In this document: positions 1,481-26,326 of the stretch, in pieces
Position numbering within the stretch: position 1 is the first letter of the stretch
How the letters are laid out: each line of letters begins with the position of its first letter
From: Microcystis aeruginosa NIES-2549
GTDB taxonomy: Bacteria; Cyanobacteriota; Cyanobacteriia; Cyanobacteriales; Microcystaceae
Direction: 5' to 3'
Assembly: GCF_000981785.2 (NCBI RefSeq)
Contig: NZ_CP011304.1
Location: 3,810,001-3,842,000 of the forward strand
Length of the DNA: 32,000 nt
Made by a program: the position numbers and the translations under genes
The notes under the pieces: generated by a model
What the model saw: only the letters and a program-made list of their open reading frames with translations
Told to the model about the DNA's origin: nothing
Database searches by the model: none

Positions 1481-2908
1481 TTAGAGAGTTCTCCCGAAAA
1501 CGCAGACTACCCGAAAACCGTAATTGTTGATGCGGTTGACGCGGCGGAAGTAGTAGTCGTAGCGAATCGCGGAACGGCAGTAAGTAGGATTGTAGCCCCA
1601 GGAACCGCCCCGCAGAGGAGAACGATTATTATTACCATTTTCTATCCAGACACTGCCATCCGTCGGCGCACCGTCATAGTTATCGTGCCAAGTATCGGCG
1701 CACCACTCCCGGACATTGCCGTGCATATCGTACAGTCCAAAGGCGTTTGGGGGAAATTGTCCCACGGGAGTTGTTTGTTGTCGATATTCTCCGTTCGGTT
1801 CATCGGCGTAGGTATTACTGGCATTGTAGTTAGCCAATTCCCCCGTAATGGTTTCCCCAAAGTAAAACGGGGTGGTGGTTCCAGCACGACAGGCGTACTC
1901 CCATTCCGCCTCACTGGGAAGTCGGTATTCCCCTCCCGTTAGTTTAGATAATCTCGCGCAGAACTCGACGGCATCGTACCAGTTGACTTGTTCCACGGGT
2001 CTATCCCAGTGCGTGGGCGATCCCCCCCTAGCCCCCCCTTCAAAAGGGGGGGAATCGGAAGCCCCCCTTTTTAAGGGGGGTTTGGGGGGATCTTTAAAAT
2101 AGGCTGGGTTGAAATCAAGGTCTTGTTTAACTTTTAAATCCGTGCGAGAGGCGATCGCTTTCCACTGGGCCTGGGTGATGGGGTATTTACCCATAAAGAA
2201 GGGTGGGACAGTTACTTCATGTTGTGGTCTTTCCCTTCTAAATCCTTCCCAATTAAATTTTTTAACCAGTCTTTCGATTTCCTCATCTTCTGTTCCCATC
2301 AGGAAAGTTCCCCCCGGAATGGCGACCATTTCTAAGGTGATGCCTTTGCCCAGATCTTCCCTGAAATATTGGGACTGTTTCGACTCTTTTCTAATTTGCT
2401 CACCCTTCGCATTTACTCCCACCACCTCAAAGTTAAATACTGATAACAGTTGTTTTGGCTCTTCCGGTTCAAGCTTGAACTGATAGCCAATTGCTCTTTC
2501 TAGTTGCTCAAATCCGTCTTCTTCCCAATAATCAAGCCAGTGAATATCTCGCAGATTCAAGCTAACTTCTGCAAGTCGCAGATCAGGAATTTCGCATTCT
2601 TCTAACCTCATGGGAATAACAAAAATTGTCCCCGGTAGCATCTGTGCCAAGGTATCAAGTGCAATCCTCAACTCCCGTTGGATGTATCCCTGTTTATTAG
2701 CCGATTTCGCTGACAGACAGGCGAGAAAAATCTGACTAGCTTTAATCGCTTTCGGAATTTCATCTCGCCAAATTTGCCCCGGAATCAGGTCTTTTTTATC
2801 CAACCAAGGTTTATATCCCGCTTGCTTAAGGCGCTCATGCAGTGCCAAAACTGCTGGTTTGTCCTCACTGGCATGGGCCAAGAAAATTTGGATCTCTGAC
2901 TTTTTCAT
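1481..2908 (-). CDS. TIR domain / formylglycine-generating-enzyme-like (SUMF1/FGE-sulfatase) domain fusion protein
   Basis: 475-aa ORF with ATG start. The N-terminal ~140 aa is TIR-like (IFLAHASEDKPAVLALHERLKQAGYKPWLDKKDLIPGQIWRDEIPKAIKASQIFLACLS). The C-terminal ~290 aa has FGE-domain hallmarks (MVAIPGGTFLMG, RPQHEVTVPPFFMGKYPITQAQW, PVEQVNWYDAVEFCARLS, YRLPSEAEWEYACRAG, PNAFGLYDMHGNVREW, RGGSW, GFRVV). Confidence 0.85.
   Translation of the reverse strand: MKKSEIQIFLAHASEDKPAVLALHERLKQAGYKPWLDKKDLIPGQIWRDEIPKAIKASQIFLACLSAKSANKQGYIQRELRIALDTLAQMLPGTIFVIPMRLEECEIPDLRLAEVSLNLRDIHWLDYWEEDGFEQLERAIGYQFKLEPEEPKQLLSVFNFEVVGVNAKGEQIRKESKQSQYFREDLGKGITLEMVAIPGGTFLMGTEDEEIERLVKKFNWEGFRRERPQHEVTVPPFFMGKYPITQAQWKAIASRTDLKVKQDLDFNPAYFKDPPKPPLKRGASDSPPFEGGARGGSPTHWDRPVEQVNWYDAVEFCARLSKLTGGEYRLPSEAEWEYACRAGTTTPFYFGETITGELANYNASNTYADEPNGEYRQQTTPVGQFPPNAFGLYDMHGNVREWCADTWHDNYDGAPTDGSVWIENGNNNRSPLRGGSWGYNPTYCRSAIRYDYYFRRVNRINNYGFRVVCVFGRTL
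2019..2092. repeat. nested palindromic G/C-run mini-element (MITE/SDR-like) inside the FGE-domain coding region
   Basis: GATCCCCCCC ... [C7-TTCAAAA-G7] ... [C6-TTTTTAA-G6] ... GGGGGGATC. Outer inverted repeat at 2019-2028 / 2084-2092; two internal hairpins at 2032-2052 and 2062-2080. It translates in frame as PPKPPLKRGASDSPPFEGGARGGS. Confidence 0.8.
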
Positions 2909-3227: not shown

Positions 3228-3905
3228 CTACAGTGTAAGTTCGGAAGAACCATTATTTTTAGCTAGTTGACTAACAACCCATGCTCTTAAATTCTTTTCT
3301 GCCCTCACTTCATCCTCTTTAGCAGTGGCTAAAAATTCATAGAGTTTAGTTTTCGGAACTAGGGGAAAAGTAGGACTAAATTCTTCTTCCTGATAAACTC
3401 CCTTTTCTAACCGATAAATGCGCCAGATTTCTCCATTAAAACGCCATAATTCCGGCACTCCCAAACGGGCATAAAGTGCTAATTTATTAATATCCGTGTG
3501 GGTAATATCCACTTCCACCACTAAATCTGGGGGCGGATCTTCAGTTAAATTAATTGTTTTTCCTAGCACTTTGGCTTGATTTTGAATATAGTAAGCATTG
3601 TCGGGTTCTGCCCCTCGTTCTAAATCTTCCCTAGCTAGAGTTGTGGAACCCATACTTTTAATTTTTAAACCCAATTCTACCACCAAAATCCGAATAAATA
3701 ATCCGATTAATTCTCGATAAAACTCGTGTTCTTCTAGGGGCATAGTAATTTCTAAAGTGCCACGATCATAAAATAAATGGGCGCGATTATTTTCCCCTAG
3801 GGCTTGTAAAATTTGCCGATAGGATAACCAACTGAGATGATTAAAAACTACCCGTTTTTCGCCCCTAATTTGCTCAGTATTTAACTCCAGAGGAACTGTC
3901 ACCAT
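3228..3905 (-). CDS. Uma2 family (DUF820) PD-(D/E)XK endonuclease-like protein, tandem copy 1
   Basis: 225-aa ORF with typical Uma2 layout (LSWLSYRQIL, RAHLFYDRGTLEITMP, EPDNAYYI, PPDLVVEVDITHTD, LYARLGVPELWRF). GAGG sits 5 nt before the ATG. Confidence 0.85.
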   Translation of the reverse strand: MVTVPLELNTEQIRGEKRVVFNHLSWLSYRQILQALGENNRAHLFYDRGTLEITMPLEEHEFYRELIGLFIRILVVELGLKIKSMGSTTLAREDLERGAEPDNAYYIQNQAKVLGKTINLTEDPPPDLVVEVDITHTDINKLALYARLGVPELWRFNGEIWRIYRLEKGVYQEEEFSPTFPLVPKTKLYEFLATAKEDEVRAEKNLRAWVVSQLAKNNGSSELTL

Positions 3906-3912
3906 AATTACC

Positions 3913-4566
3913 TCAACTTTCAGCTAGTTGACTAACAACCCATGCTCTTAAATTCTTTTCTGCCCTCACTTCATCCTCTTTAGCAGTGGCTAAAAATTCA
4001 TAGAGTTTAGTTTTCGGAACTAGGGGAAAAGTAGGACTAAATTCTTCTTCCTGATAACCTTCCTTTTCTAACCGATAAATGCGCCAGATTTCTCCATTAA
4101 AACGCCATAATTCCGGCACTCCCAAACGGGCATAAAGTGCTAATTTATTAATATCCGTGTGGGTAATATCCACTTCCACCACTAAATCTGGGGGCGGATC
4201 TTCAGTTAAATTAATTGTTTTTCCTAGCACTTTGGCTTGATTTTGAATATAGTAAGCATTATCGGGTTCTGCCCCCCGTTCTAAATCTTCCCTAGCTAGA
4301 GTTGTGGAACCCATACTTTTAATTTTTAAACCCAATTCGGACACCAAAAAATAGATAAAACGTCCAATTAATTCTCGATAAAACTCGTGTTCTTCTAGGG
4401 GCATAGTAATTTCTAAAGTGCCACGATCATAAAATAAATGGGCGCGATTATTTTCCCCTAGGGCCTGTAAAATTTGCCGATAGGATAACCAACTGAGATG
4501 ATTAAAAACTACCCGTTTTTCGCCCCTAATTTGCTCAGTATTTAACTCCAGAGGAACTGTCACCAT
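3913..4566 (-). CDS. Uma2 family (DUF820) PD-(D/E)XK endonuclease-like protein, tandem copy 2
   Basis: 217-aa ORF near-identical to 3228-3905, offset by 661 bp. Differs in a 28-nt patch and in the C-terminal tail. Confidence 0.85.
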   Translation of the reverse strand: MVTVPLELNTEQIRGEKRVVFNHLSWLSYRQILQALGENNRAHLFYDRGTLEITMPLEEHEFYRELIGRFIYFLVSELGLKIKSMGSTTLAREDLERGAEPDNAYYIQNQAKVLGKTINLTEDPPPDLVVEVDITHTDINKLALYARLGVPELWRFNGEIWRIYRLEKEGYQEEEFSPTFPLVPKTKLYEFLATAKEDEVRAEKNLRAWVVSQLAES

Positions 4567-4630: not shown

Positions 4631-5686
4631 TCAAACCAATGCCGGAACCTGGGGCCAACGCCCGATCGTCTTACCAATGACCGCTAACTCCCGCGTTAAC
4701 TGGTCGAACCTGTCGGGAGTCAAGGATTGCGGCCCATCGGATAGGGCCTTGGCTGGGTTAGGATGTACTTCGATCATCAAGGAATCGGCCCCAGCTGCCA
4801 GGGAAGCCATGGCCATAGTCGGTACATATTCCCATTTACCCGTACCGTGGCTAGGATCGATCATGATCGGCAGGTGGGTTAAAGTTCTTAAAACGGGAAT
4901 ACAGGATAAATCTAGGGTATTACGAGTATATTTACTGTCAAAGGTGCGGATACCGCGTTCGCAGAGAATAACATTGCTATTTCCTGCCGCGAGGATATAT
5001 TCTGCCGCCATCAACCAATCTTCAATAGTGGCCGCCATGCCGCGCTTGAGTAGGACTGGTTTCGGTTGCGCCCCAACTTTTTTCAGGAGGGAAAAATTCT
5101 GCATATTGCGGGCCCCCACCTGCACCACGTCGGCTATTTCGACAATCTTATCGAGATCCGCCGCGTCCATTACTTCCGTGATAATACCCAGACCACTGGC
5201 ATCTCTAGCCGCCGCTAGTAATTCCAAAGCGCTTTCCCCGTGACCTTGGAAAGCGTATGGAGAAGTGCGGGGTTTATAGGCACCACCGCGGAGGAATTGC
5301 GCTCCGGCTGCCGCCACTCGTTTGGCAGTTTCCACGATCATCGCCTCATTTTCCACCGAACAGGGGCCGGCGACAATGCTAACGGTATGATTTCTGCCGA
5401 TGGGGATAACACCGTTAGGAGTGGGGACTAAAACCTCGCTGTATTCCCCGTGACGGTATTCTAAAGAGGCGCGTTTGAAGGGTTGTTCGACTCGCAGGAC
5501 GGTTTCGATCCAAGGGCTTAGTTCTTGGATTTGTAGGGGGTCTAATTCCCTGGTTTCTCCGACTAAACCGATGACAACTTTATGCTTACCGACGATTTTT
5601 TCAGGACTTAATCCCCATGCCTCGAATTCGGCACTGACGCGCTCGATTTCAATTTCCGGGGAACCAACTTTCATGACAATAATCAT
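4631..5686 (-). CDS. aroF: 3-deoxy-7-phosphoheptulonate (DAHP) synthase, type I-beta with N-terminal regulatory domain
   Basis: 351-aa ORF with motifs IAGPCSVE, LRGGAYKPRTSPY.FQG, KRG, DPSH.TG typical of the KDO8PS/DAHPS I-beta family. N-terminal ~70-aa extension (MIIVMKVGS...). Confidence 0.9.
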   Translation of the reverse strand: MIIVMKVGSPEIEIERVSAEFEAWGLSPEKIVGKHKVVIGLVGETRELDPLQIQELSPWIETVLRVEQPFKRASLEYRHGEYSEVLVPTPNGVIPIGRNHTVSIVAGPCSVENEAMIVETAKRVAAAGAQFLRGGAYKPRTSPYAFQGHGESALELLAAARDASGLGIITEVMDAADLDKIVEIADVVQVGARNMQNFSLLKKVGAQPKPVLLKRGMAATIEDWLMAAEYILAAGNSNVILCERGIRTFDSKYTRNTLDLSCIPVLRTLTHLPIMIDPSHGTGKWEYVPTMAMASLAAGADSLMIEVHPNPAKALSDGPQSLTPDRFDQLTRELAVIGKTIGRWPQVPALV

Positions 5687-5744
5687 GGCATTAACCCTTT
5701 ATTTTTTTCTTTAATCTCTATTGTTGACGATTTCTAGAGGTTAT

Positions 5745-6209
5745 CTATTTTTCTTCCACTTCTTTTTTGCCGGACCGCCAAGCGGCGATCGTTCTGCCAA
5801 AATTAGCTTGAAATTCTTGCCATCCTAGCCAATCCCCCACCCGATCCTCGTCCCAAGAAGCGGAGAAGATGCCATAACTCAGACCGATAAAACCGAGACC
5901 AAATAGGCTTAAACTGACGAGCATGGCGACGTAGGAAGGGATTTCGAGAAGATCGTGGCTAATAATCCAGTAGAAGCCAAAAAAGGAAGTTATCCCCAAT
6001 GCCGTCGGAATGCCACAAAATGCCGCCATGCGTTTGGCCATCCGTTGACTGACCACTTGGGGAATTGCCTTTAAGCTGGCTTCCTCGGAGCGATTTTTTA
6101 GCGGCGGTGGCACGGGACTAGGGGCAATTTTCGGGGTTTTTCGCTTATTTTGGCGCGGCTCAAAGGGGAGACGTTCTTTTTTCTCCGTCGATTTCGATTC
6201 AGAGGCCAT
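5745..6209 (-). CDS. PAM68-like (DUF3464) membrane protein
   Basis: 154-aa ORF. Basic N-terminus (ERLPFEPRQNKRK), SQRMAKRMAAFCGIPTALGI, then two hydrophobic helices. The assignment rests on remembered family features. Confidence 0.55.
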   Translation of the reverse strand: MASESKSTEKKERLPFEPRQNKRKTPKIAPSPVPPPLKNRSEEASLKAIPQVVSQRMAKRMAAFCGIPTALGITSFFGFYWIISHDLLEIPSYVAMLVSLSLFGLGFIGLSYGIFSASWDEDRVGDWLGWQEFQANFGRTIAAWRSGKKEVEEK

Positions 6210-6233
6210 GGTAGGGATGCAAAGGGGGTAAGC

Positions 6234-6503
6234 TTAACGGCGAATTCCGAGACGAGCGATCAGGGTTTGATAGCGTTGTTGATCTTTCTTCTGGATATAG
6301 GTTAACAGTCCCCGACGACGACCGATCATCTGGAGTAATCCCCGGCGGGAAGCGTGGTCTTTCGGGTTAGCTTTCAGGTGTTCGGTCAGTTGGTTGATTC
6401 TCTCGGTTAAGAAAGCTACCTGTAACTCCGATGATCCTGTATCGGTTTCGTGGGCCTGATATTGGCTGATTAGTTCTTGTTTTTTGGTCTGGGTTAAGGC
6501 CAT
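6234..6503 (-). CDS. rpsO: 30S ribosomal protein S15
   Basis: 89-aa ORF: [70 protein letters not shown] is canonical S15. Confidence 0.97.
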
Positions 6504-6601: not shown

Positions 6602-6642
6602 TTCCCAATCTCCCCAATTCCCCATTTCCCCAATTCCCCATT
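6602..6642. repeat. octamer tandem repeat (TCCCCAAT/TCCCCATT, ~5 units)
   Basis: ttcccaat-c-tccccaat-tccccatt-tccccaat-tccccatt in the divergent rpsO/ndhM intergenic region. Confidence 0.9.
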
Positions 6643-7293: not shown

Positions 7294-7819
7294 AAGTAAT
7301 CAAGACAACAATTCAAAAGTAAACCGCATCAACCTAGAAATTAGACGAAGAAAGGCTCATTAGGTACTATCTGATAATTCTGACAAGGAATCAGACTGTA
7401 AAATGAGACATAAAGATATTAGCGTACAAACTAGAGAAAATCTCTCACAACTTTCTCCCCTGCTTTCTCTGACAAAAAAATGCCAATTTCTGGAGAGACA
7501 TGAACGAGAATTAATTCTCGAAGGGTTTCTTCTGTTTCTCCTAAGTATTTAAATTATTTAAGTTGGGATTATTGATAGAGACATTTTCCTGATTTTAGAG
7601 ATAAATCTTTGATTATTTGTTGATTTTAAAATAACATTTTGGCTACCTTTTTATAGGAGTTTGATTTTTCGCCCTCCTTGATAAAAGAGAAGTACAAATA
7701 CTTAGAACTTAAGGAAGATGCTCTCTTTCTAGAGCTTGTGTTTATATTAAAGATACAGTTGAGCTATCAAATTTGTCTTCAACAAAAGTACATATTTTTT
7801 CACCATTGAGCCGCAAAAA

Positions 7820-8665
7820 ATGAAAATTAATATTTTTCCCATCAGTCTGTTTTCTGGCATAAGTATAATTACACTGTGGGCTTTTCCCTCCCTTGCCGCT
7901 AGTTTATCCGTTGCCGAGCTATTTGTTAAGATAGAAAATTTTAACCGACCATCCCTAGGAGCTATTTCTAGGGGAAATAATCAAATAATTAATATTGCTG
8001 AGGATGGAATTAGTCAGACTATTTTGACAGGTTCCGCATTTTTCCAGTCAGATGCGCTGGAATCATTAGGACAAATTGAATTTACTAATCAAACTCTGGG
8101 TTTTGGGAGTAATTTTGTTGGTAGGGCTGATATTCAAGCTTCTCTAGGGAGTCTATTTTTTGTGCCAGCTAATCAAGCTTTAAGCTTCGATTTTAGCCTG
8201 TTCAGACAGCTATCTAATAGCCAAAGTGAATCGCAGTTAAATACAGTTAGTAGTGCCAGCAGATTTAACTTTTTTCTTGAGGAACAATCTCTCATAAACT
8301 CGGATAATAGTTCTGAAATTTTGCCTCGACAACTAGATATGTTAAACCAGATTAATAGCGGTTTATCGGCAAGTATTCCTGAGAATTATTCTAGGTTTTT
8401 GATCGGGAACAACATCACGATTAATAGTTATATGGAAAATATTATCTCTACGGATCAGCAGCAATTAGTGACCACATTATTAACGGGTTCTTTTCAGTGG
8501 ACAGCAATAAGAGATACTATGATTTTTTTGAGTGTCTCGGCTCAATCTTGCACCTATAGTTCTGATCAACCGCGCACTTGTGTGATTATCGCTGAACCCC
8601 GTTACCATGGCATAATTTTCTTCCTTATCATCCCTATTTTCCTCTTATTCCGAACGATAAAGTAA
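7820..8665 (+). CDS. secreted S/N/Q-rich hypothetical protein with PEP-CTERM-like C-terminal anchor
   Basis: 281-aa ORF. N-terminal signal peptide (MKINIFPISLFSGISIITLWAFPSLAAS). C-terminus IAEPRYHGIIFFLIIPIFLLFRTIK: an (A)EP motif, a hydrophobic helix and a basic tail. Confidence 0.6.
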   Translation: MKINIFPISLFSGISIITLWAFPSLAASLSVAELFVKIENFNRPSLGAISRGNNQIINIAEDGISQTILTGSAFFQSDALESLGQIEFTNQTLGFGSNFVGRADIQASLGSLFFVPANQALSFDFSLFRQLSNSQSESQLNTVSSASRFNFFLEEQSLINSDNSSEILPRQLDMLNQINSGLSASIPENYSRFLIGNNITINSYMENIISTDQQQLVTTLLTGSFQWTAIRDTMIFLSVSAQSCTYSSDQPRTCVIIAEPRYHGIIFFLIIPIFLLFRTIK

Positions 8666-12082: not shown

Positions 12083-13744
12083 TTAAAGTGTCAGCCCATC
12101 CTGTTGTAGCTTTTTGAGCGGTTCTAATAAGACATCGATGATGCGACGACGACGGATAATAATCTCCGCCGTCCCGGTTTGTCCGGGTTTGAACGCCAGC
12201 GCTCCCTGACCGGGACGAGGGGAATCGCGATCGAGCAGAATCTCCACTTGATAGATCTCGCCTAAATCTTGATCGGTTCTGGTAGCGGTGGAAATCTTGC
12301 CAACTTTACCCCCAATCACGCCGTAATCTTGGTAAGGAAAAGCATCGATTTTCACCTGGGCCGTTAGTCCTGATTTGATAAATCCCGCTTCCCGATTGGG
12401 CAACTCGGCTAAGAGTACCAAAGGAACTCCTTCGGGGGCTACCTCGGCCAAGGTTTGACCGGCTTGCACCACCTCCCCTGATTTTTTCAGGTTGAGAGTC
12501 AAGATCACGCCATCGACTGGTGCTGTTAGATATTTTTGACGGAGTTGCTCCTGGGCTTTGGCCAAGAGGGTCTTATTTTCTCGTATACGAGCATCGATCT
12601 GGGCTATTTCTAGCTCGAGCGACGCTTTTTGTTTATTGGTCTCCAACTGCACCGCTTGCGCTTCTGCTCGCTTGCGACGCAATTCTGCCTGTAGTTGGGC
12701 GACTTCTTGGTAAGTTTTGGCTAATTCCCCTTGATTTTGGGTGATACGACTCTCTAGGTCGAGTAGGGATTGGGAGGCTTGGAAAATCTGCTCTTCGGCG
12801 TTATTGATTTCCTGTAATTGACTGATAGTAATCTTCTGTTCTGTCTCCCGCAGGTTTTGTTCGGCTTGAAAGAGCATCTCCAGGGAAATCGCCCCGTCGG
12901 CGGCTAAGGGTTTTAAACGAGCCACCCGCTCCTGATGGGCTTTCTTCTCCTCCTCTAGTTGGGCCGAGCGCCGGCTGGCTTCCCCGGAAAGGGGGTTTAG
13001 TTGCTGACGACGACTGCGATAGGCACTAGCTTGGGTTTTCTGTTCCCGCAATAATTGACGGATAGTGTCTAGTTTGCTTTCGGCAAGAGCGATCGCTGAT
13101 AATTGGGCTTTTTCCTCGGCTTCTGCGATCGCTTTTTGGGTGTCCTCCTGCAAATTTAGCCGCTCCCACAGGCCTCGTTTCTGAGTCTGTTCGATGTAGT
13201 TAGCGTTCAGGCTTTGTTGTAGGCGTTCTACTTCTTTTTGGGCAATTGTGGTGTCAATCTCGGCGATAATTTGTCCTTTTTTTACTTTATCCCCTTCTTT
13301 GACCTCTACACGGCTGATTTGACCCAATTCGAGGGGTTGAATTTTATAGGTTTCTCCCTGGGGAATTAATTTTCCCGTCGCCTTGCCCACTTCTTCGATC
13401 TGTCCGAACCATGCCCAGGTTCCGAAAATGACACAGAATCCCATTCCTGCCATCAATAGGCGTGTGGGTAGGGTGGCGGGGGGCTGATCGAGTAGGGTTT
13501 GTACGGGAGTTGACCAGGTGGTGGCGGAATGACCCGGAATCGGGGCGGCTACGGTGCTGAGAGGGGCGACTGCCCCACCACAAATCTGCTCCGCTTTTGC
13601 GGGAGAAATGGTGATTTCCCTCTCTTTGTCAGTTTCTTGTCCGACTTGGTTCGATTCAGGTAAATTGTTCATGGTATCTGCTGATAAGAGTGAGAGAGAC
13701 CCAGCAAAAACGGTCGCTGGCAAGTTGCTCTTAACTTTTGCCAA
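12083..13744 (-). CDS. HlyD-family membrane fusion / periplasmic adaptor protein
   Basis: 553-aa ORF (TTG at 13744; alternative ATG at 13672). One TM helix (LLMAGMGFCVIFGTWAWFG), a lipoyl-like motif (VKEGDKVKKGQIIAEID), a long coiled coil, and a beta-barrel tail (GLTAQVKIDAFPYQDYG). Confidence 0.9.
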   Translation of the reverse strand: MAKVKSNLPATVFAGSLSLLSADTMNNLPESNQVGQETDKEREITISPAKAEQICGGAVAPLSTVAAPIPGHSATTWSTPVQTLLDQPPATLPTRLLMAGMGFCVIFGTWAWFGQIEEVGKATGKLIPQGETYKIQPLELGQISRVEVKEGDKVKKGQIIAEIDTTIAQKEVERLQQSLNANYIEQTQKRGLWERLNLQEDTQKAIAEAEEKAQLSAIALAESKLDTIRQLLREQKTQASAYRSRRQQLNPLSGEASRRSAQLEEEKKAHQERVARLKPLAADGAISLEMLFQAEQNLRETEQKITISQLQEINNAEEQIFQASQSLLDLESRITQNQGELAKTYQEVAQLQAELRRKRAEAQAVQLETNKQKASLELEIAQIDARIRENKTLLAKAQEQLRQKYLTAPVDGVILTLNLKKSGEVVQAGQTLAEVAPEGVPLVLLAELPNREAGFIKSGLTAQVKIDAFPYQDYGVIGGKVGKISTATRTDQDLGEIYQVEILLDRDSPRPGQGALAFKPGQTGTAEIIIRRRRIIDVLLEPLKKLQQDGLTL

Positions 13745-14090
13745 GATAATTAATCTAGGGGAAAAAGAAACAATCTGGTGTTTCTTTAGGGATGTCTGTT
13801 GATCAAATCGCTTTCTTTTTACTGATCGAAGAATTTTAAGCGAACAATAAACAAGAACCAGTTAAGAATTATTTTTTGATCTATCTTGAAATCTCTAGCT
13901 TTCCCGATCCCCCATTTATGTATACTGGATGTAGTAAATGATAGATGGATATGGTGATTCTATCTTGGCTATTAAGTTATGCTCCACAAATAGATTATGT
14001 TCATGTTACCAGTTTTGTCAAGTATCAAAATAGTTAGTTATACACGAGTTAAATCTTAGCTATATTGTGGCTTATTCTAGAGAATTGCAG

Positions 14091-14105
14091 TTGCCAGAAT
14101 GGCAA
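14091..14105. promoter_or_regulatory. TTGCCA-N3-TGGCAA palindrome, copy 3
   Basis: TTGCCAGAATGGCAA is a perfect inverted repeat in the 895-bp spacer, ~350 nt upstream of the hlyD start. Confidence 0.4.
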
Positions 14106-14639
14106 TATAACTGTTAATTTTTCTGAAGCTTCACTTGGCAATAAAATGCAAAATTTCGATAATATCGGTGTTTTTAGACGAAAATTTTCGATTTTAACCT
14201 TAAAAATTGACCATAATCAAATAGTTTTATTTGAAAGAATGAGCAAATTCAGCTATATTTTCGTGGCTTGCCGAAAGTCTAACATCTGTCTCTAGGTCGA
14301 TATTTTTATCTATCAAATCATCGATGAAGAACAAATCAAAATATGTATACTCTGGCATTTACTGGTGGTGAAAAATACCGCTCAAGGGATTAAAAATATA
14401 TAAAATAGCCTCCCTTGGTTTAGTCTGGTTAAATGTAACCTAGAAAAACTTTTCTGTCATAACTGCACAGAAAAATTAAGAATACACCAGAGAGGTCCAA
14501 AGAACAGAGAGAGGAAGAGAAATTCGATGAGTAATACTGAATCCTTTCGAAAAGAACTATAAAAATGGAGAGTGGGGAGATGAGGGAGATAGGGCGTTAA
14601 GTTGGCATAGGATAGTACGATCTGGGCAGAAGGTGGTCG

Positions 14640-17600
14640 CTATAAATCCAATTGTTGGTGGGCGAGGTAATAGTACAACCCTTTTAAAGCCATTAAATCT
14701 TCATGGGTTCCCCGTTCCACCAAAAGACCTCGATCGAGAACCAGAATAGAATCGGCGTTGCGGACGGTAGAAAGACGATGGGCAATGATCAGGGTAGTGC
14801 GATCACGGGATAGACGAGCCAGATTGTCTTGAAAACGACGTTCCGATTCGGTATCGAGGGAACTGGTCGCCTCATCGAGGAGTAAAATTTTCGGATTACC
14901 TAACAGGGCCCTAGCGATGGCGATTCTTTGTCTCTGGCCGCCCGATAAATTCATCCCCCTTTCCCCCACCTTTGTATTGTAGCCGAGGGGGAGATTTTGA
15001 ATAAAAGCGTGAGCTTCGGCCAGTTTAGCCGCCTCTATCACCTCCTCTAAACTATATTCATGGCGATAAAGCCTGATATTGTCTAGAATCGTTCCCGAAA
15101 ACAGAAAACACTCCTGGGGAACAACTCCCATCTGGGCCCGCAAAGAAGTGGGCGAAACCTGAGTCAGATCATGTCCATCGATCCGAATAGTACCGCTATC
15201 GGGGTGATAGAGACTCTCTACCAGCTTGAATAGGGTACTTTTGCCCGAACCGCTGCGGCCGACCACCGCCACCGTCTCGCCTGGATTCACCGAGAAAGAA
15301 ATATTTTCCAAAACATTGCTCTCATCGCTGCTGTGGTAGCGGAAACTGACGGAATCGAAACAGATTTCACCGCGTAACCCCGGCAAAGTCAGCAGCGGGC
15401 GATCGCTAGTTTCTTCGGGGGTAGCGGAAAAAACATCGTCGAGACGTTCGATCGAGATTGTCACTTCCTGTAATTCATCCCAAAGATTGACCAGGCCCAA
15501 CACCGGACTGAGTACTTTACCGATCAACATATTAAAAGCGACGAACTGGCCGATGGTCAGTTGATTTTCAATCACCAGAGTGGCCCCGTACCAGAGTAAA
15601 GCGGTACTGCCAAGGGAGTGGATCGTGCCGCTGGCCGCCTGTAGATTAATTCCTAACTTTTGCCCCCGAAAACGGGCATTTAAAAAACCCGTCAGGTGTT
15701 CCTCCCAACGCCAGCGCAGTTCTCCCTCAGCGCCGAGGGATTTGACCGTGGCGATCCCGGATATGGTCTCGACGAGGGAAGAATTTTGTTGGGCTGCCTC
15801 GTTAAAGACCTCCCGGGATACCTGACGCAGGAAAGGGGTAGCAAATATAGTCAGCAAAGCGATGGGTGGGATTAAAGCGATAACCAGTAGGGTTAACTGC
15901 CAATTGTAGAAAAACATTAAACCCAGATAGACGAATCCCATCAAAAAATCTAGCCAAGCTAGGATGACCTGACTGACTAAAAAACGCTGGATTTTTTCAT
16001 TTTCGTTGACCCGGGTGATGATATCGCCCACATGACGGGATTCAAAGAATTTTAGGGGTAATTTGAGGGCGTGGCCGATAAAACCGCTAATCATTGTCAA
16101 GTCGAGACGGTTGGAGAGATAACTCAACCAATACTGGCGAATTGCCACCAGTCCCACACTCCAGAGTCCAAAAAGTAACACCCCGAGGGCAAAGACGTTA
16201 AGGGTGGAAAGGCTTCGATTGACCACCACTTTATCAAGGATAATCTGGGTAAATAGGGGCGTGATCAGGCCAAATAATTGAATTAACAAGGAAATCAGAA
16301 TTATCTGTAAGCCTAGGCCCCGGTAGGGGGACAAAAGCTGGAAAAAACGCTTAAAAGAGGGTTTATCGGTGGCGATTGTTCCTAAAATTGCCGTCGGTTC
16401 TAGCAAGAGAGCGTAACCCGTCCATCCCTGTAAAAATTGCTGACGGGAATAATAACGCTTACCTTGGGCGGGATCGGCCACTAATAGGCGATCGCCGCTG
16501 ACTGGATAGACGACAACAAAATGATCCCCCTGCCAGTGCGCTATCCAGGGATTTTTCTGTTCAAGAAGACGATTTAAACTGGCACGCACCGGTCGAGACT
16601 GATAACCGAGGGTTTCCGCCGTTTTTGCCAAATTTTTCAGGGATACGCCCGATCGCCCCACTCCCGCCAATTCCCTCAAGCTATTCAAACTCAAGCGTTT
16701 TCCCCAGTAAAGGCTAATCATTGCCAGACAGGTGGCCCCGCAATCGGCGGCACTTTGTTGTTCTAGCCAAGGATATTTCTGCCCGAAACGGAACCGCCGT
16801 TTTAAGGGTTTGGGAAAATCAACGGGCTGATTTTGGCTGGTAGGAGGACGCAGGGGGATAACATTGGACTTAGGGGCGGGATTAACTAGAATTTCAGCCC
16901 TTTTTTCCCGATTAATATCTTTTTTTTCAGCGGTTTCGGCAGGCAGATAGTATAAAACTACGTCGGTCGCCGTCACCCTGGCCGGAGGCGAGGAGGTGGT
17001 ATTATCCCAACTGTCACCGATGCTCATCCCCTCGATCTGTCCTTGCCGCAACCAATAGCGTCCTTTGGGAAGATGATCGAGAGTTTCCTGGGCCTGGAGC
17101 GATTTTTCCTGTAAATAGGGCAGAAAACTGCTAATTTTTGCACTAGATTCTGATTGGCAATCCGTTAGGGTTTTGAAAAAAATTAAGGTTTGGGTGTGTT
17201 TTATTTTCGAGTGCCACGCTTGTTGTAATTCGGGCAACGATTCTAAGAATTGCAGCAGCATCGGACGGGAAAGACGGGCTACAGTTACCTGACTGGCGGC
17301 AATCGGCGAGTAGAGAAGACTATCTTTAATAAATAGCGAATCTGCTCCGAAAACATCCCCTACTGTCAAGATTCCCCCAGATAGCCAACGTTTGTTACCT
17401 TGACCCAGTAATCGAACCCTTCCCTGACAGATCAAGTAAAAATCCTCGTTATTTTCCCTCCCCCCTCTCGCTTCGGGATCGCTATTGATACTATCTCCCA
17501 ATGAGAAATTAATCACTTGAAAAGACTCGCTCAAGGATTCTAGCAATTCGTTTTTATCTGGGGCAATTTTAGCCTGTTGTTGCAGTAAAGCTTTGATTTG

Positions 17601-17660
17601 AGAAGACTTTAAGGAAGTATCTTCCTTCTCGTTCCCCTGGGTCGTTAAGGGTTTTTTCAT
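14640..17660 (-). CDS. HetC-like ABC exporter: cNMP-binding-like N-terminus + C39 peptidase + ABC TMD + ATPase
   Basis: 1006-aa ORF. Cyclic-nucleotide-binding-like region (FYLICQGRVRLLGQG...GDVFGADSLF). C39 triad context (QQSAADCGATCL, GDHFVVVY, VADPA). Six-helix TMD. Walker A GRSGSGKST, signature LSGGQRQR, Walker B ILLLDEATS. Confidence 0.92.
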   Translation of the reverse strand: MKKPLTTQGNEKEDTSLKSSQIKALLQQQAKIAPDKNELLESLSESFQVINFSLGDSINSDPEARGGRENNEDFYLICQGRVRLLGQGNKRWLSGGILTVGDVFGADSLFIKDSLLYSPIAASQVTVARLSRPMLLQFLESLPELQQAWHSKIKHTQTLIFFKTLTDCQSESSAKISSFLPYLQEKSLQAQETLDHLPKGRYWLRQGQIEGMSIGDSWDNTTSSPPARVTATDVVLYYLPAETAEKKDINREKRAEILVNPAPKSNVIPLRPPTSQNQPVDFPKPLKRRFRFGQKYPWLEQQSAADCGATCLAMISLYWGKRLSLNSLRELAGVGRSGVSLKNLAKTAETLGYQSRPVRASLNRLLEQKNPWIAHWQGDHFVVVYPVSGDRLLVADPAQGKRYYSRQQFLQGWTGYALLLEPTAILGTIATDKPSFKRFFQLLSPYRGLGLQIILISLLIQLFGLITPLFTQIILDKVVVNRSLSTLNVFALGVLLFGLWSVGLVAIRQYWLSYLSNRLDLTMISGFIGHALKLPLKFFESRHVGDIITRVNENEKIQRFLVSQVILAWLDFLMGFVYLGLMFFYNWQLTLLVIALIPPIALLTIFATPFLRQVSREVFNEAAQQNSSLVETISGIATVKSLGAEGELRWRWEEHLTGFLNARFRGQKLGINLQAASGTIHSLGSTALLWYGATLVIENQLTIGQFVAFNMLIGKVLSPVLGLVNLWDELQEVTISIERLDDVFSATPEETSDRPLLTLPGLRGEICFDSVSFRYHSSDESNVLENISFSVNPGETVAVVGRSGSGKSTLFKLVESLYHPDSGTIRIDGHDLTQVSPTSLRAQMGVVPQECFLFSGTILDNIRLYRHEYSLEEVIEAAKLAEAHAFIQNLPLGYNTKVGERGMNLSGGQRQRIAIARALLGNPKILLLDEATSSLDTESERRFQDNLARLSRDRTTLIIAHRLSTVRNADSILVLDRGLLVERGTHEDLMALKGLYYYLAHQQLDL

Positions 17661-21657: not shown

Positions 21658-21729
21658 TATATAAACAGTAAAAAAGCTCTAGTGATCGATTTAACCGGTC
21701 ACTATTGCCTATTGTAGGGGAGATAAAAA

Positions 21730-22185
21730 ATGACTGTTATTCCCGACTTAAAAACTCTCTACGAGATTGATGATTCTCTCTGGTTAGAAGAAACTATCGA
21801 ACTCTTGAAAGCGAAAAAATTTGACGCTTTAGATTTAGACAATTTAATCGAGGAGTTAGAAGACTTGGGAAACGAAAAAAGGTTTCGTGTTGCTAGTTTT
21901 TTACAGCAAATTATTAGACATTGTTTATTATTACAGTTTTGGACAAGGGAAAGAGAATATAATCAGGCTCATTGGCAAGCAGAGATAATAAGTTTTCAAT
22001 ATCAGTTAAAGCGCTATTTAACCACAAATCTTCGCAAATATCTAGAACAGGAATTTGAGCAAATTTACTTTGAGTCCCTGCAATACGTTCGTAAAAAAAC
22101 TGATAATAAAGTCAACTTTCCTGATATTTGTCCCTACAGTTTAGAAGAACTTCTCGATCCTAATTGGCTACCACCTTACGAATAA
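21730..22185 (+). CDS. DUF29 family protein, array copy 1
   Basis: 151 aa. LYEIDDSLWLEETIELLKAKKFDALDLDNLIEELEDLGNEK...RH.LLLQFW....HW..EI pattern of DUF29. GGGGAGA SD. Confidence 0.8.
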   Translation: MTVIPDLKTLYEIDDSLWLEETIELLKAKKFDALDLDNLIEELEDLGNEKRFRVASFLQQIIRHCLLLQFWTREREYNQAHWQAEIISFQYQLKRYLTTNLRKYLEQEFEQIYFESLQYVRKKTDNKVNFPDICPYSLEELLDPNWLPPYE

Positions 22186-22196
22186 AGGAGATGATA

Positions 22197-22652
22197 ATGA
22201 CTGTTATTCCTGACTTAAAAATTCTCTACGAAATTGATGATTCCCTCTGGTTAGCAGAAACTATAGAACTGCTCAAGGCTAAAAAATTTGACGATTTAGA
22301 CTTAGACAATTTAATCGAGGAGTTAGAAGACTTGGGAAACGAAAAAAAGTTTCGTGTTGCTAGTTTTTTACAGCAAATTATTCGTCATGCTTTGTTACTG
22401 CAATTTTGGACAAGGGAAAGAGAATATAATCAAAGTCATTGGGAATCAGAACTGGTAAATTTTCAAGATCAATTAAATACCTACCTAACGGCAAGTTTAC
22501 GGAAATATTTAGAACAAGAATTTGATAATATTTATCAGAAGGCACTCCGTTATGTGAGAAAAAAGACCAACAATCAAGTCATTTTTCCCGATACTTGTCC
22601 CTACAGTTTAGAAGAACTTCTCGATCCTAATTGGCTGCCACCTTACGAATAA
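22197..22652 (+). CDS. DUF29 family protein, array copy 2
   Basis: Start chosen at ATGACTGTT (MTVIPDLK), 6 nt after AAGGAG, by homology to copy 1. The track's upstream extension MATTLRIKEMI overlaps the end of the previous gene. Confidence 0.8.
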   Translation: MTVIPDLKILYEIDDSLWLAETIELLKAKKFDDLDLDNLIEELEDLGNEKKFRVASFLQQIIRHALLLQFWTREREYNQSHWESELVNFQDQLNTYLTASLRKYLEQEFDNIYQKALRYVRKKTNNQVIFPDTCPYSLEELLDPNWLPPYE

Positions 22653-22663
22653 AGGAGATGATA

Positions 22664-23119
22664 ATGACTGTTATTCCCGACTTAAAAACTATCTACGAGA
22701 TTGATGATTCCCTCTGGTTAGCAGAAACTATAGAACTGCTCAAGGCTAAAAAATTTGACGCTTTAGACTTAGAAAACTTAATCGGGGAGTTAGAAGACTT
22801 GGGAAACGAAAAAAAGTTTCGTGTTGCTAGTTTATTAGAGCAAATTATTAGACATTTTTTACTCCTACAGTTTTGGACAAAGGAAAGAGCATATAATCAG
22901 GATCACTGGGAGTTAGAAATAGTCAACTTTCAAATTCAGCTAAAAAGAGGCTTAACCACCAATCTCCGTAATTATTTACAAAATGAATTAACCAACATTT
23001 ATGAAGATGCAGTTTTCTTTGTGCGGAAAAAGACAAAGAATAAAGTTATTTTCCCTGATACTTGTCCCTACAGTTTAGAAGAACTTCTCGATCCTAATTG
23101 GCTGCCACCTTACGAATAA
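22664..23119 (+). CDS. DUF29 family protein, array copy 3
   Basis: Same junction TAAAGGAGATGATAATGACTGTT; 151 aa. Confidence 0.8.
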   Translation: MTVIPDLKTIYEIDDSLWLAETIELLKAKKFDALDLENLIGELEDLGNEKKFRVASLLEQIIRHFLLLQFWTKERAYNQDHWELEIVNFQIQLKRGLTTNLRNYLQNELTNIYEDAVFFVRKKTKNKVIFPDTCPYSLEELLDPNWLPPYE

Positions 23120-23130
23120 AGGAGATGATA

Positions 23131-23586
23131 ATGACTGTTATTCCCGACTTAAAAACTATCTACGAGATTGATGATTCTCTCTGGTTGGAAGAAACCATCG
23201 AACTTTTGAAAGCAAAAAAATTTGACGCTTTAGATTTAGAGAATTTAATCGAGGAGTTAGAAGATTTGGGAAACGAGAAGAAGTTTCGTGTTGCCAGTTT
23301 TTTACAGCAAATTATCAGACATTGTTTATTATTACAATTTTGGCCAAGGGAAAGAGAATATAATCAAGGTCATTGGAAAGCAGAGATCGTGAGTTTTAAA
23401 GATCAACTAAAACGTTATTTAACCACGAATCTTCGTAAATATCTGGAGCAAGAATTTGATAATATCTATGAAGATGCAGTGCGATACGTTCGTCAAAAAA
23501 CCGATAATAAAGTCAACTTTCCTGATATTTGTCCCTACAGTTTAGAAGAACTTCTCGATCCTAATTGGCTACCACCTTACGAATAA
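23131..23586 (+). CDS. DUF29 family protein, array copy 4
   Basis: Same junction; 151 aa. Confidence 0.8.
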   Translation: MTVIPDLKTIYEIDDSLWLEETIELLKAKKFDALDLENLIEELEDLGNEKKFRVASFLQQIIRHCLLLQFWPREREYNQGHWKAEIVSFKDQLKRYLTTNLRKYLEQEFDNIYEDAVRYVRQKTDNKVNFPDICPYSLEELLDPNWLPPYE

Positions 23587-23597
23587 AGGAGATGATA

Positions 23598-23678
23598 ATG
23601 ACTGTTATTCCCGACTTAAAAATTCTCTACGAAAAGGATTTCGGTTTGTTATCACTCTTAGAATCTTCTCAGCAGTGA
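23598..23678 (+). pseudogene. truncated fifth DUF29 copy (first ~12 codons only)
   Basis: The identical junction plus ATGACTGTTATTCCCGACTTAAAAATTCTCTACGAA. Homology then ends, with a stop after 26 codons (MTVIPDLKILYEKDFGLLSLLESSQQ*). Confidence 0.75.
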
Positions 23679-23825
23679 ACAGTAGGTTAACTCAGTTCTG
23701 GATTAAAACGAAATCCTCAGAGCCTATCGCTTTAAAATCCCGATTTTTTAGCCTCATTTTGTCAACTGGGTTTTTAAGATTAGATTGACAGTGAATCACA
23801 CTATTAAAAAAGGATTTGGCATCAG

Positions 23826-25514
23826 CTAACGATTTTTAAAAGCTTCGATCGCCGCCGGCAAAGTATAGTAAATCCTCTCCTCGCTAATTTTATCTAACAA
23901 GCGGGAACGTTGCAATTCTAAGTACAGATCGTGTTTAACCCTAGCGAGAGCGAAAACTATACCCTGTCTTGATAATTCTGCTGCTAATTCCTCAAGAATC
24001 TCCACTGCTGTACTATCCAATTCCCCAAGAGCCTCCGTATTCAAGACAAACCATTCTACCGGTTTTGTCTCCCGGGCAATGGCACTGAGAGCGCGACGTT
24101 TAAAGTCGGCCGCATTAGCAAAAAATAAGGGGGCATCGTAACGATAGATAACCAACCCCGGTATTGTTTGCGCTTCCGGCCAATCCTGGAGCGCGTGTAA
24201 ACCCATCACCCCCGGAACCTTACCCAAGACCGCATCATCGGGCCGAGTAATGCGGGCCAATAAATCGATAACCGAGAGACCGATGGCGATAGCAACCCCG
24301 CTTAAAATCCCCGTGGTTAGCACCCCCACCATGGTCAGGACAGCGAGATTAAACTCACTATTGCGAAAGCTTTTTAGTCGTTTAGCGCCGGCAATATCCA
24401 CCAGTTTACAGGCTGCATAAATCACCAGCGCACCCAAAGCGGCCTTGGGAAAGAGTGCCAGTAGTGGACCGAGCAGGAAAATGACCGCCACCACCACCAC
24501 TGCCACCACTAGGGAGTAAAGCTGACTTTTACTGCCCACGGAATCGCCCACCGCGGTGCGACTGGCACTGCTGCTGATGGGAAATCCCTGACAAAAACCC
24601 GCCGCCAGATTCCCCAGTCCCAGGGCTAAAAATTCTTGATTGGCATCGATTTCTTGGTTATGGCGTGCGGCGAAGGCTCTAGCGGTCAAAACGTTATCGG
24701 AATAGCCCACCAGGGCAATGCCGACGGCTGCGGTTCCTAGGGGTAGTAATTGGGAAAAATCTAGGGTTGGTAAGCCAAAATTAGGCAAAGTATTGCTAAT
24801 TTTCCCCACTACTGCCACCCCCTCTTGATCGAGATGGAGGGTGGCGACAGCGAGGGTTCCCAGTAAAACCGCCAGCAAGGGACCCGGTGCTTTGGGAAAA
24901 TATTTTTGGATGACAAATAGAAATAGTAGCAGCAATAGAGCGAGGCTAAGGGTTGGCCAGTGCCATTGATTTATTCCCCGAAAAAAAGCTAAAATTTCTT
25001 TAAAAACCGTATTTTCACGGATTGACAAACCACTAATTTTACCCAGTTGTCCCGCAATCATGATCACCGCCACTCCCGCCATATAACCGATCAGGATCGG
25101 TTTGGAGAGTAAATTAGCTAAAAATCCCAAGCGGGCGATATAACCAACTAAACAGATTAAACCGACCATTAGGGCTAAAAAAGCCGCTAAACTACCGTAA
25201 TTTTCCCCTTGAAGGCTTACCATAGGTGCGATCGCTGCCGCCGTCATCACTGCCGTGGTCGATTCCGGTCCGAGGGATAGTTGCGATGAGGAACCGAAAA
25301 GGGCGTAAACTAGGGCCGCTGGCACGAGAGTCCACAATCCCACCACCGGCTCGACTCCGGCCAGGTCGCCGTAGGCCATACACTGGGGAATAGCGTAGGC
25401 TGCCACGGTGACACCGGCGAGGATATCTCTCCCCAGCCACTGCCATTGATAGGAGCGCAGGTTTTTTAGCCCGGGTAAATCAGGAAAATCCACTCGTCGG
25501 GAGTTTTTACTCAT
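23826..25514 (-). CDS. SulP-family inorganic anion transporter with C-terminal STAS domain
   Basis: 562 aa, polytopic. AGVTVAAYAIPQCMAYGDLAGV, GPESTTAVM and SSSASRTAV motifs. STAS-like tail (VIYRYDAPLFFANAADF...). Confidence 0.9.
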   Translation of the reverse strand: MSKNSRRVDFPDLPGLKNLRSYQWQWLGRDILAGVTVAAYAIPQCMAYGDLAGVEPVVGLWTLVPAALVYALFGSSSQLSLGPESTTAVMTAAAIAPMVSLQGENYGSLAAFLALMVGLICLVGYIARLGFLANLLSKPILIGYMAGVAVIMIAGQLGKISGLSIRENTVFKEILAFFRGINQWHWPTLSLALLLLLFLFVIQKYFPKAPGPLLAVLLGTLAVATLHLDQEGVAVVGKISNTLPNFGLPTLDFSQLLPLGTAAVGIALVGYSDNVLTARAFAARHNQEIDANQEFLALGLGNLAAGFCQGFPISSSASRTAVGDSVGSKSQLYSLVVAVVVVAVIFLLGPLLALFPKAALGALVIYAACKLVDIAGAKRLKSFRNSEFNLAVLTMVGVLTTGILSGVAIAIGLSVIDLLARITRPDDAVLGKVPGVMGLHALQDWPEAQTIPGLVIYRYDAPLFFANAADFKRRALSAIARETKPVEWFVLNTEALGELDSTAVEILEELAAELSRQGIVFALARVKHDLYLELQRSRLLDKISEERIYYTLPAAIEAFKNR

Positions 25515-25642: not shown

Positions 25643-26326
25643 CTAAATATACTCAGAAATATCCTCTTGACAATCATCGGCTAAGTATGATAAAGCCCGG
25701 AAGCGTAAACCGACTAATTGCTCGTAGAGAGGATTTAACTTGCACAGGGGCGGAATATGGACTAATTTATGACCAAACAGCACGATATCCCGTTCAAAAG
25801 GACATTGAGGTGGGACCATTTTGCAGATAAACCGGGCCAAACGCGGATCGTGCATTTCTACCCCATCTAACCAGTCTTTGAGGGGATGCAGCAGATCCGG
25901 GTGGGGATGTTCGGCACTGATAAACTCAGATTTCTGCGCTTCCGTGGTAATTTCGGGAATTTCACAGACAGTATGTTCTAAAGCTGACAGGGCCTCGATT
26001 TCTAACCCGAAAGCATCCCGATAACTATGCAGTAATGCCGCTTCTGCGGGGGAATAAATGCCATCGGCGATCGCTACCATCACCGCCGTGCGGAGGAAGT
26101 TTTCTGATATTTTGGGGTCATGACCGAAACTTGCGGCCAATTCTTCGGGACTAATCGACTGATAGAGAACGTGGTCGTCATCTAATTCTAATTCGTGAGC
26201 GAAACGGGCGATCGATTCCTGTTCGCTGGTGCTATAATCCCCATCAGACCAGGCAATTGTCAGTAATCCCCGTAACCAGTCCCTAACTTGTTCGTTAGTG
26301 TAGCGATATTGAACAGAGCTAACCAT
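25643..26326 (-). CDS. TerB-like N-terminal domain + Mo-dependent-nitrogenase C-terminal-like domain protein
   Basis: 227 aa. The N-terminal half has two tellurite-resistance-TerB-like repeats (IAWSDGDYSTSEQESI; MVAIADGIYSPAEAALL). The C-terminus LLHPLKDWLDGVEMHDPRLARFICKMVPPQCPFERDIVLFGHKLVHIPPLCKLNPLYEQL matches the Mo-nitro_C family as remembered. Confidence 0.6.
   Translation of the reverse strand: MVSSVQYRYTNEQVRDWLRGLLTIAWSDGDYSTSEQESIARFAHELELDDDHVLYQSISPEELAASFGHDPKISENFLRTAVMVAIADGIYSPAEAALLHSYRDAFGLEIEALSALEHTVCEIPEITTEAQKSEFISAEHPHPDLLHPLKDWLDGVEMHDPRLARFICKMVPPQCPFERDIVLFGHKLVHIPPLCKLNPLYEQLVGLRFRALSYLADDCQEDISEYI

Follow-up and report, generated by a model that had tools for sequence, protein, structure and literature searches.

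The 32,000-nt window analyzed here (Microcystis aeruginosa NIES-2549, contig NZ_CP011304.1, positions 3,810,001 to 3,842,000 of the forward strand) carries a head-to-tail array of four complete genes of the DUF29 family followed by the truncated start of a fifth. The array is probably a lineage-specific tandem family of old DUF29 paralogs at a fixed chromosomal locus, in which the ends of the units have been homogenized, the centers have been kept by purifying selection, and the units recombine with one another.

Tandem Repeats Finder reported a single long-period array at 21729-23632, with a period of 467, 4.1 copies, 83% matches, and 0% indels. The ATG starts at 21730, 22197, 22664, 23131, and 23598 are spaced by exactly 467 bp; the first four open reading frames (ORFs) encode 151 aa each and the fifth is a 26-aa stub, which bears out in every detail the geometry given in a preliminary description of this DNA. 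Its assignment of the genes to DUF29 also stood. All four unit proteins match the full length of Pfam DUF29 (PF01724; profile positions 1-138 of 138) with E values of 1e-39 to 1e-41 and scores of 135-143 bits, the gathering cut-off being 22.5 bits. Between any two units, 82-90% of DNA positions and 79-89% of protein positions are identical, and the period across all arrays compared is 467-470 bp. Each of the four units is a complete ORF with an AAGGAG ribosome-binding site 8 nt 5' of the ATG. An assembly artifact is excluded, the copies being too divergent and the array being present also in closed genomes. Close homologs of the unit proteins are nearly all from Microcystis, an exact-match look-up of the unit 3 protein returned no record, and the left flank of the window is 96-99% identical to that of Microcystis contigs. 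A plasmid origin was rejected: there was no nucleotide match to a plasmid, and the sole protein match was distant, in Nostoc. Coordinates are given in Table 1.

A set of loci was assembled from contigs encoding identical or similar proteins and from a scan of one genome per species. The array belongs to a conserved locus, petL-[DUF29]n-LPG_synthase_TM, with n = 4-5 in Microcystis and n = 2 in Pannus. The distance from the petL start to the first unit is 166 or 175 nt in all but one of the 23 other Microcystis arrays; the exception (L012) is a short contig that begins within petL and cannot be scored. Of these 23 arrays, 22 close with a distinct 152-aa type, the terminal type, whose gene adjoins or overlaps one for an LPG_synthase_TM-family membrane protein. 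The sister genus is represented by Pannus brasiliensis, with the order response regulator-radA-petL-DUF29x2-LPG_synthase_TM; since Pannus has the locus with two units, the locus is older than Microcystis, and the array grew from two to four or five units. A hidden Markov model scan of 66 DUF29 loci outside Microcystis found a single gene at approximately 57, a pair at eight, and a triple at one; arrays of at least four units were confined to Microcystis.

When the unit centers (nt 193-390) were clustered at a threshold of at least 90% identity, six discrete types were obtained: A, B, E, and F, which are those of the window, in that order; D, which leads the array in some strains; and T, the terminal type. 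Eleven architectures were found in total, including that of the window: A-B-E-F-stub, D-A-E-B-T, D-A-B-T, A-E-B-F-T, A-B-F-E-T, A-E-B-T, A-B-E-T, E-A-B-F-T, E-B-F-T, B-A-E-A-T, and B-B-E-T. Type T is last in every architecture but the window's. Five orders occur among six closed or near-closed chromosomes (L007, L009, L010, L016, L023, and L027). A one-unit difference separates L002 from L005, L008, and L009 despite 1.8-kb left flanks that are 99.9% identical, although L002 is a metagenome contig, so this comparison carries less weight. Copy number therefore does vary among strains, as anticipated in the preliminary description, with 4-5 units per array and with unit order differing more strikingly than unit number. 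Such permutation of units requires repeated unequal crossovers, recombination between differently ordered arrays, or conversion of whole centers, and the duplicated types in B-B-E-T and B-A-E-A-T fit duplication followed by loss.

Draft assemblies handle the array poorly. Metagenome contigs L001 and L013-L015 end inside the second or third unit, and because the array breaks short-read contigs and scaffolds, copy numbers from draft assemblies are unreliable and under-reported. In the metagenome-derived L011, the units at 7468-7845 and 8309-8651 lack 93 and 128 internal nucleotides that are present in L010, which leaves products of 125 aa and approximately 100 aa; these could be real decay or assembly errors.

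The regularity of the array could also be explained by a hetero-oligomeric helical assembly, whose subunits the array would supply as stoichiometric partners from one operon, with the conserved N-terminal part of the proteins as the interface common to all. The total is constant at 4-5 units, with T at the end and A, B, and E in most strains; intergenic distances of 11-12 nt, or ATGA start overlaps, would suit coupled translation; and two-domain DUF29 fusions in several lineages (P0164, P0229, and P0232) suggest that DUF29 domains may pair. However, every type is missing somewhere (A from E-B-F-T and B-B-E-T, T from the window, D and F from many strains) and some are duplicated, so an obligate complex of fixed composition is unlikely. 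Together with the predominance of single genes at the loci outside Microcystis, this makes the assembly an unlikely explanation for the array.

Centers of the same type average approximately 95% identity between strains, whereas those of different types are approximately 70% identical whether or not they come from the same genome. Synonymous divergence (pS, Nei-Gojobori) in the centers of the window copies is saturated at 0.68-0.78, except for a value of 0.44 for A versus F, and the ratio of nonsynonymous to synonymous divergence (dN/dS, Nei-Gojobori) is 0.09-0.17. Saturated synonymous sites, dN/dS of approximately 0.1, and the discreteness of the types together indicate old paralogs under purifying selection and not hypervariable cassettes. 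The mosaic seen in type F is itself old, because type F recurs in other strains and copy 1 of Pannus has the F-like string EFDNIYEDAV.

An AlphaFold2 model based on a 133-sequence alignment (predicted local distance difference test, pLDDT, 91.6; predicted template modeling score, pTM, 0.79) places helices at residues 7-13, 15-27, 36-70, 72-96, 99-123, and 138-142; an earlier run with a shallow, Microcystis-only alignment gave a pLDDT of 61 and was discarded. The unit proteins are acidic (pI 4.65-4.87), no signal peptide was recognized at the N-terminus (MTVIPDLKTLYEIDD, read directly from the sequence), and they are probably cytoplasmic helical bundles. Across the 133 sequences Y11, D14, W18, D35, E42, L66, and W82 are invariant and E41, E44, H64, and Y113 nearly so; every array type carries all of them unchanged. 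They may make up a core or site common to all types within the N-terminal half; on helices 4-5, the exposed faces would differ by type and may give the isoforms distinct partner or ligand specificities. By sequence, the sole solved relative is PDB 3FCN, which the DUF29 family profile matches at E 3e-11. Pfam searches with the 133 members at E <= 1 returned scattered noise only, and the units had no NCBIfam match. An all-alpha MazG-like NTP pyrophosphatase, the JGI name attached to some homologs, was rejected: there was no MazG or dimeric-dUTPase Pfam match among the 133 members at E <= 1 and no Foldseek support. A HEPN-like Rx4-6H motif was also rejected, as inspection of the alignment showed only the His to be conserved. 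Whole-word literature searches for DUF29, PF01724, and IPR002636 returned only a yeast two-hybrid screen of Synechocystis, in which DUF29 was among the self-activating domains (PMC2779905).

The preliminary description favored a diversity-generating or immunity-type system, that is, cassettes whose centers are under diversifying selection against changing targets such as toxins or phage proteins. Conserved ends around a variable center and the strain differences in unit number and order would suit such a system, as would the variable positions of helix 99-123, which as judged by helical periodicity point 168 degrees from the hydrophobic face (96 degrees on helix 72-96). A variable surface of the kind that it envisaged would fit helix 99-123, but the positions that differ between types coincide with those that vary family-wide (Spearman 0.39, p 5e-7). 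Purifying selection on only six types, each well conserved between strains, also argues against the cassettes. Adenine bias of the kind produced by a diversity-generating retroelement was looked for and rejected: the consensus is A at 40 of 120 variable sites compared with 36% A overall, with 232 transitions and 207 transversions. No reverse transcriptase was found among the Pfam-scanned neighbors in the window (radA, SulP, and TerB/Mo-nitro_C). Antigenic-variation cassettes do not fit what is read from the sequence, as all four units are complete ORFs with AAGGAG and without a signal peptide, and a polymorphic toxin/immunity array does not fit spacers of only 11 nt and flanks made up of radA, petL, and LPG_synthase_TM. 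Matches to CdiI_2 were limited to four of 133 DUF29 proteins at E 0.12, which is noise. In PADLOC-DB 2.0, neither units 1 and 3 nor a DUF29 from Nostoc matched any family at E <= 1. We consider the cassette system rather improbable.

Co-localization of DUF29 with defense or toxin genes, which had been raised as a corollary, was not borne out either. Elsewhere in cyanobacteria, the 122 DUF29 neighbors (upstream of 63 loci, in 70 Pfam families, and downstream of 59, in 57) are mostly housekeeping genes such as cysS, lpxA-like genes, D-Ala-D-Ala ligase, fumarase, and gyrB, and they include no recurrent toxin or defense partner; methyltransferase and Uma2 genes occur nearby two or three times each. 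The sole recurrent partner is DUF429 (PADLOC candidate PDC-S44), at nine orthologous Nostoc loci of one lineage, and a conserved two-gene module of the type II toxin-antitoxin kind is not supported by so varied a set of neighbors. The DUF429 gene lies directly 5' of DUF29 on the same strand, approximately 60 nt away, at approximately 5200-6430 in Nostoc L071, L078, L080, L082, L086, L087, L090, L092, and L097. Among phages, DUF29 forms the PHROG family phrog_11797, annotated as function-unknown, and ORF11 of the Ralstonia inoviruses RSS1 and RSS0 (RSS0 being L113, NC_019548.1, 5723-6154) is a DUF29 homolog; it has been listed as an unknown ORF that is also present in an RSM-type phage (PMC4471427). 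Only 15 IMG/VR contigs contained a distant DUF29 relative. Although the Nostoc pairing and the phage ORF11 would count in favor of the cassette system, they are leads, not evidence of a defense role.

A further reading, to which we would give only a small chance, is that the boundaries are kept as recombination handles that re-deal six DUF29 specificity modules, yielding an intracellular combinatorial repertoire whose targets might be, for example, proteins of phages or mobile elements. The occurrence of DUF29 as an accessory gene of inoviruses and its pairing with a defense candidate in Nostoc would agree with this reading. If true, it would provide the first functional handle on DUF29, a large, mostly cyanobacterial family that comprises 2,323 clusters at 50% identity and, at 90%, over 6,800 proteins.

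Returning to the tandem family of old paralogs, the pattern of conserved ends and a variable middle noted in the preliminary description was confirmed, with differences between window copies concentrated at nt 190-400 (ends versus center, Fisher p 4e-5 to 4e-14 for all six pairs). The deficit at the ends is synonymous: pS among the window copies is 0.11-0.47 for codons 1-63 and 0-0.09 for codons 134-151, so that the ends are 3-10 times less divergent at synonymous sites than the center. When copies with one center type are compared from strain to strain, pS is 0.18-0.30 in the 5' third and only 0.11-0.17 in the center, which indicates that 5' modules move between types; the 5' module alleles KAKKFD, KAKNFE, KNKRYE, and KAKRFD are paired with different centers in different strains. 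Residues 19-34 are freely variable across the family but uniform among array types. Because of the synonymous deficit, the uniformity of residues 19-34, and the movement of 5' modules, protein constraint alone is insufficient to account for the ends.

The most uniform part of the array is the junction tract of approximately 94 nt, which consists of the final 58 nt of one ORF including its TAA stop, the 11-nt spacer with AAGGAG, and the initial 25 nt of the next ORF. The four junctions of the window share identical runs of 42, 40, and 10 bases with two single-nucleotide polymorphisms between them. Two junction 24-mers from one strain resemble each other more than two from different strains do (permutation p = 0.001), and in the window all four are identical. 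A common junction allele (…CCATCTGACAATCAAGGAGATAAAAAATGA) in L010, L012, L016, L017, L020, and L022 lacks the TAA stop; there the upstream ORF gains five codons (…LPSDNQGDKK), reaches 156 aa, and shares an ATGA overlap with the next start, so that the 151-aa and 156-aa forms differ at the C-terminus and not in the start codon. An RNA element at the junction was ruled out by the absence of an Rfam match and by folding weaker than that of shuffled sequence (z = +1.9), and a promoter and terminator scan inside the array gave nothing beyond the expectation from shuffling.

The pairwise homoplasy index (PHI) test on 29 distinct units was significant for the full length and for the center alone (p <= 0.001). 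MaxChi on the window copies showed that unit 4 matches unit 3 rather than unit 1 at nt 331-349 (p = 0.002), with weaker signals elsewhere. The shared strings on which the preliminary description had based its mosaic (LEETIELL, RHCLLL, DNKVNFPDICPYS, LAETIELL, VIFPDTCPYS, KTIYEIDD, LDLENL, NIYEDAV, and EQEFDNIY) are all present, and its attribution of the mosaic to recombination or gene conversion holds for the 29 units, for MaxChi, and for the uneven pS, but within the window the mosaic is real and thin. It is the divergence profile, MaxChi, and the comparison between strains that carry the argument for recombination.

Several observations weigh against the reading that we prefer. PHI on the four window copies alone was not significant (p = 0.35), and 22 of their 29 informative sites favor a simple (1,4)(2,3) tree. 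The 5' third is equally alike within and between strains (0.914 versus 0.911), which implies that homogenization there is at the population level or old, with strain-specific concerted evolution limited to the junction. Ordinary protein constraint accounts for part of the conservation of the ends, most family-invariant residues lying in the N-terminal half, within residues 11-66. Metagenome assemblies, in which repeats can be joined wrongly, are the source of some of the architectures and chimeric proteins. An apparent two-copy array in L006 was discarded, as a 100-N scaffold gap (7469-7568) follows its unit 2; there were no Ns in any other array region. Surface exposure was judged from periodicity and not from coordinates, and no biochemical role is supported by Foldseek, which at E <= 0.001 found no PDB or viral (BFVD) structure, the best match being C3PO at E = 1.3. 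The first and third of these points, together with the Shine-Dalgarno sequence in the junction, are what would be expected of old serial duplicates without any gene conversion, their ends kept alike by selection on the protein core and the ribosome-binding region, but this is very improbable in view of the synonymous nature of the deficit, the uniformity of residues 19-34, the different 5' modules found with one center type, the PHI result for all units, and the clustering of junction alleles by strain.

We propose that the DUF29 unit is modular, with a type-specific center (codons ~64-133, helices 4-5) that exists in six versions kept by purifying selection. Gene conversion would keep the 5' third, and above all the junction tract, alike among the units. 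At the homogenized boundaries, units could then undergo unequal homologous recombination and short-tract conversion within a genome and, probably, from strain to strain. Whole units could in this way be lost, duplicated, or moved to another position and 5' modules joined to other centers, and each strain would thereby hold its own subset and order of the six isoforms. In the window strain, an unrelated rearrangement would have cut the array in the fifth unit, removing the terminal-type copy and the downstream membrane-protein gene.

The preliminary description regarded the terminal stub as the expected product of unequal crossing-over, which its surroundings contradict. Every other complete array has type T and then LPG_synthase_TM at its end. 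Nowhere in the window are the type T copy or the locus genes for LPG_synthase_TM, Uma2, and a 457-aa protein present, and the stub is joined through a short filler to a 223-bp segment whose counterpart in L006 (2858-3079), L007, and L004, at 95% identity by BLAST and alignment, sits immediately to the left of the ccb2/ccb4 gene, on the opposite side of the locus and in the same orientation. Because T and LPG_synthase_TM are missing and a segment from the other side has been joined, the stub is a rearrangement breakpoint within the fifth unit; unequal crossing-over changes whole units and is therefore not its source. The same junction is present in metagenome contig L018, apparently from the same population. 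A simple inversion does not match the geometry. The filler is the inverted complement of 23705-23717, and a templated filler of this kind hints at replication-based repair. In P0228, another protein from Microcystis, the initial 40 residues of a unit are joined to unrelated sequence, so breaks inside units recur.

Table 1. Features of the DUF29 array and its borders (coordinates in the window)
Feature	Coordinates	Strand	Remarks
radA, 508 aa	19984..21510	+	Pfam Zn_ribbon_LapB, KaiC-type ATPase, and ChlI/Lon_C-like C-terminal domains; left neighbor, syntenic in all Microcystis loci and Pannus
petL-like membrane ORF, 33 aa	21556..21657	+	72 nt 5' of unit 1; left anchor in every strain
DUF29 unit 1, center type A (QYQLKRY...EQIYFES), 151 aa	21730..22185	+	PF01724 E 2e-39; center >=90% identical to type A of other strains
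Homogenized junction tract, first of four	22128..22221	+	Others at 22595-22688, 23062-23155, and 23529-23622
DUF29 unit 2, center type B (SHWESELVNFQDQLNTYLTAS), 151 aa	22197..22652	+	PF01724 match; center clustering
DUF29 unit 3, center type E (DHWELEIVNFQIQLKR...NIYEDAVFF), 151 aa	22664..23119	+	PF01724 match; center clustering
DUF29 unit 4, center type F, 151 aa	23131..23586	+	A-like; nt 321-349 tract common to types B and E (DNIYEDAV)
Fifth-unit stub, first ~37 nt	23598..23634	+	Resulting ORF extends to 23678; homology to units lost at ~nt 37-42
Rearrangement junction	23635..23868	+	12-nt filler 23635-23646, then 223-bp segment 23647-23868

The petL-like ORF has no more than a weak, precomputed Pfam PetL match, recorded on the identical gene in related contigs. 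Elsewhere in the window, two Uma2-family genes (putative restriction endonuclease-like; 3228-3905 and 3913-4566, minus strand, 225 and 217 aa) are adjacent and nearly identical, a second tandem duplication, and match PADLOC candidate PDC-S17. A 475-aa protein encoded at 1481-2908 (minus strand) has an N-terminal TIR domain, which matches several PADLOC TIR models, and an FGE-sulfatase (SUMF1-like) domain. At 12083-17660 (minus strand), a 1006-aa ABC exporter with cNMP-binding and C39 peptidase domains adjoins an HlyD-family protein, the two forming a peptide or bacteriocin-type export pair. The 227-aa protein encoded at 25643-26326 (minus strand) has a TerB-like N-terminus together with a Mo-dependent nitrogenase C-terminus domain (Mo-nitro_C), and a short intergenic tandem repeat at 6602-6642 has an 8-nt or 16-nt unit (CCCAATTC / TTCCCCATTTCCCCAA).

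The array adds a tidy new instance of a known evolutionary process and is not a diversity-generating system. It offers a clean bacterial case of boundary-restricted gene conversion that permutes old paralogs without homogenizing them; a literature search on gene conversion among Microcystis tandem paralogs returned one unrelated paper and nothing describing the array. It is also a natural experiment, in which six isoforms with a shared core and two differing helices occur in varied combinations in otherwise near-identical bloom-forming strains. The isoform set points to residues for tests of specificity, and the strains form a panel for phenotype association.

The units resemble other PF01724 members and PDB 3FCN, described as 'an alpha-helical protein of unknown function (Pfam01724)', in their full-model match and all-helical predicted fold, but typical members are single genes and the Microcystis units form arrays of four or five. 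RSS1/RSS0 ORF11 encodes a DUF29 homolog of approximately 143 aa, with 40% identity to a DUF29 protein from cyanobacteria; it occurs as a lone accessory gene in an inovirus of 6.7-7.3 kb, and the Microcystis units are distant from it (E 5e-8 to the PHROG profile).

Among cassette systems, Neisseria pilE/pilS and Borrelia vlsE/vls each have one expression site and promoterless, partial silent cassettes, and encode surface antigens under diversifying selection. The array shares with them head-to-tail cassettes, conserved flanks, a variable center, and short-tract exchange between copies, but its units are complete ORFs with their own ribosome-binding sites and without a signal peptide, and they fall into six stable types with low dN/dS. 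The orphan/immunity arrays of polymorphic toxins, in contact-dependent inhibition (CDI; cdiA-CT/cdiI) and Rhs systems, are likewise made of small tandem genes with strain-variable content that rearrange via conserved segments; unlike them, the DUF29 array has neither an upstream toxin gene nor toxin C-terminal fragments between units. Concerted and birth-and-death evolution share with the array same-strand tandem units, differences in copy number and order, homogenized segments of low dS, and signals of recombination. The array departs from the general concerted model in that homogenization is restricted to the unit boundaries and the outcome is a permutation of six types, not a uniform array.

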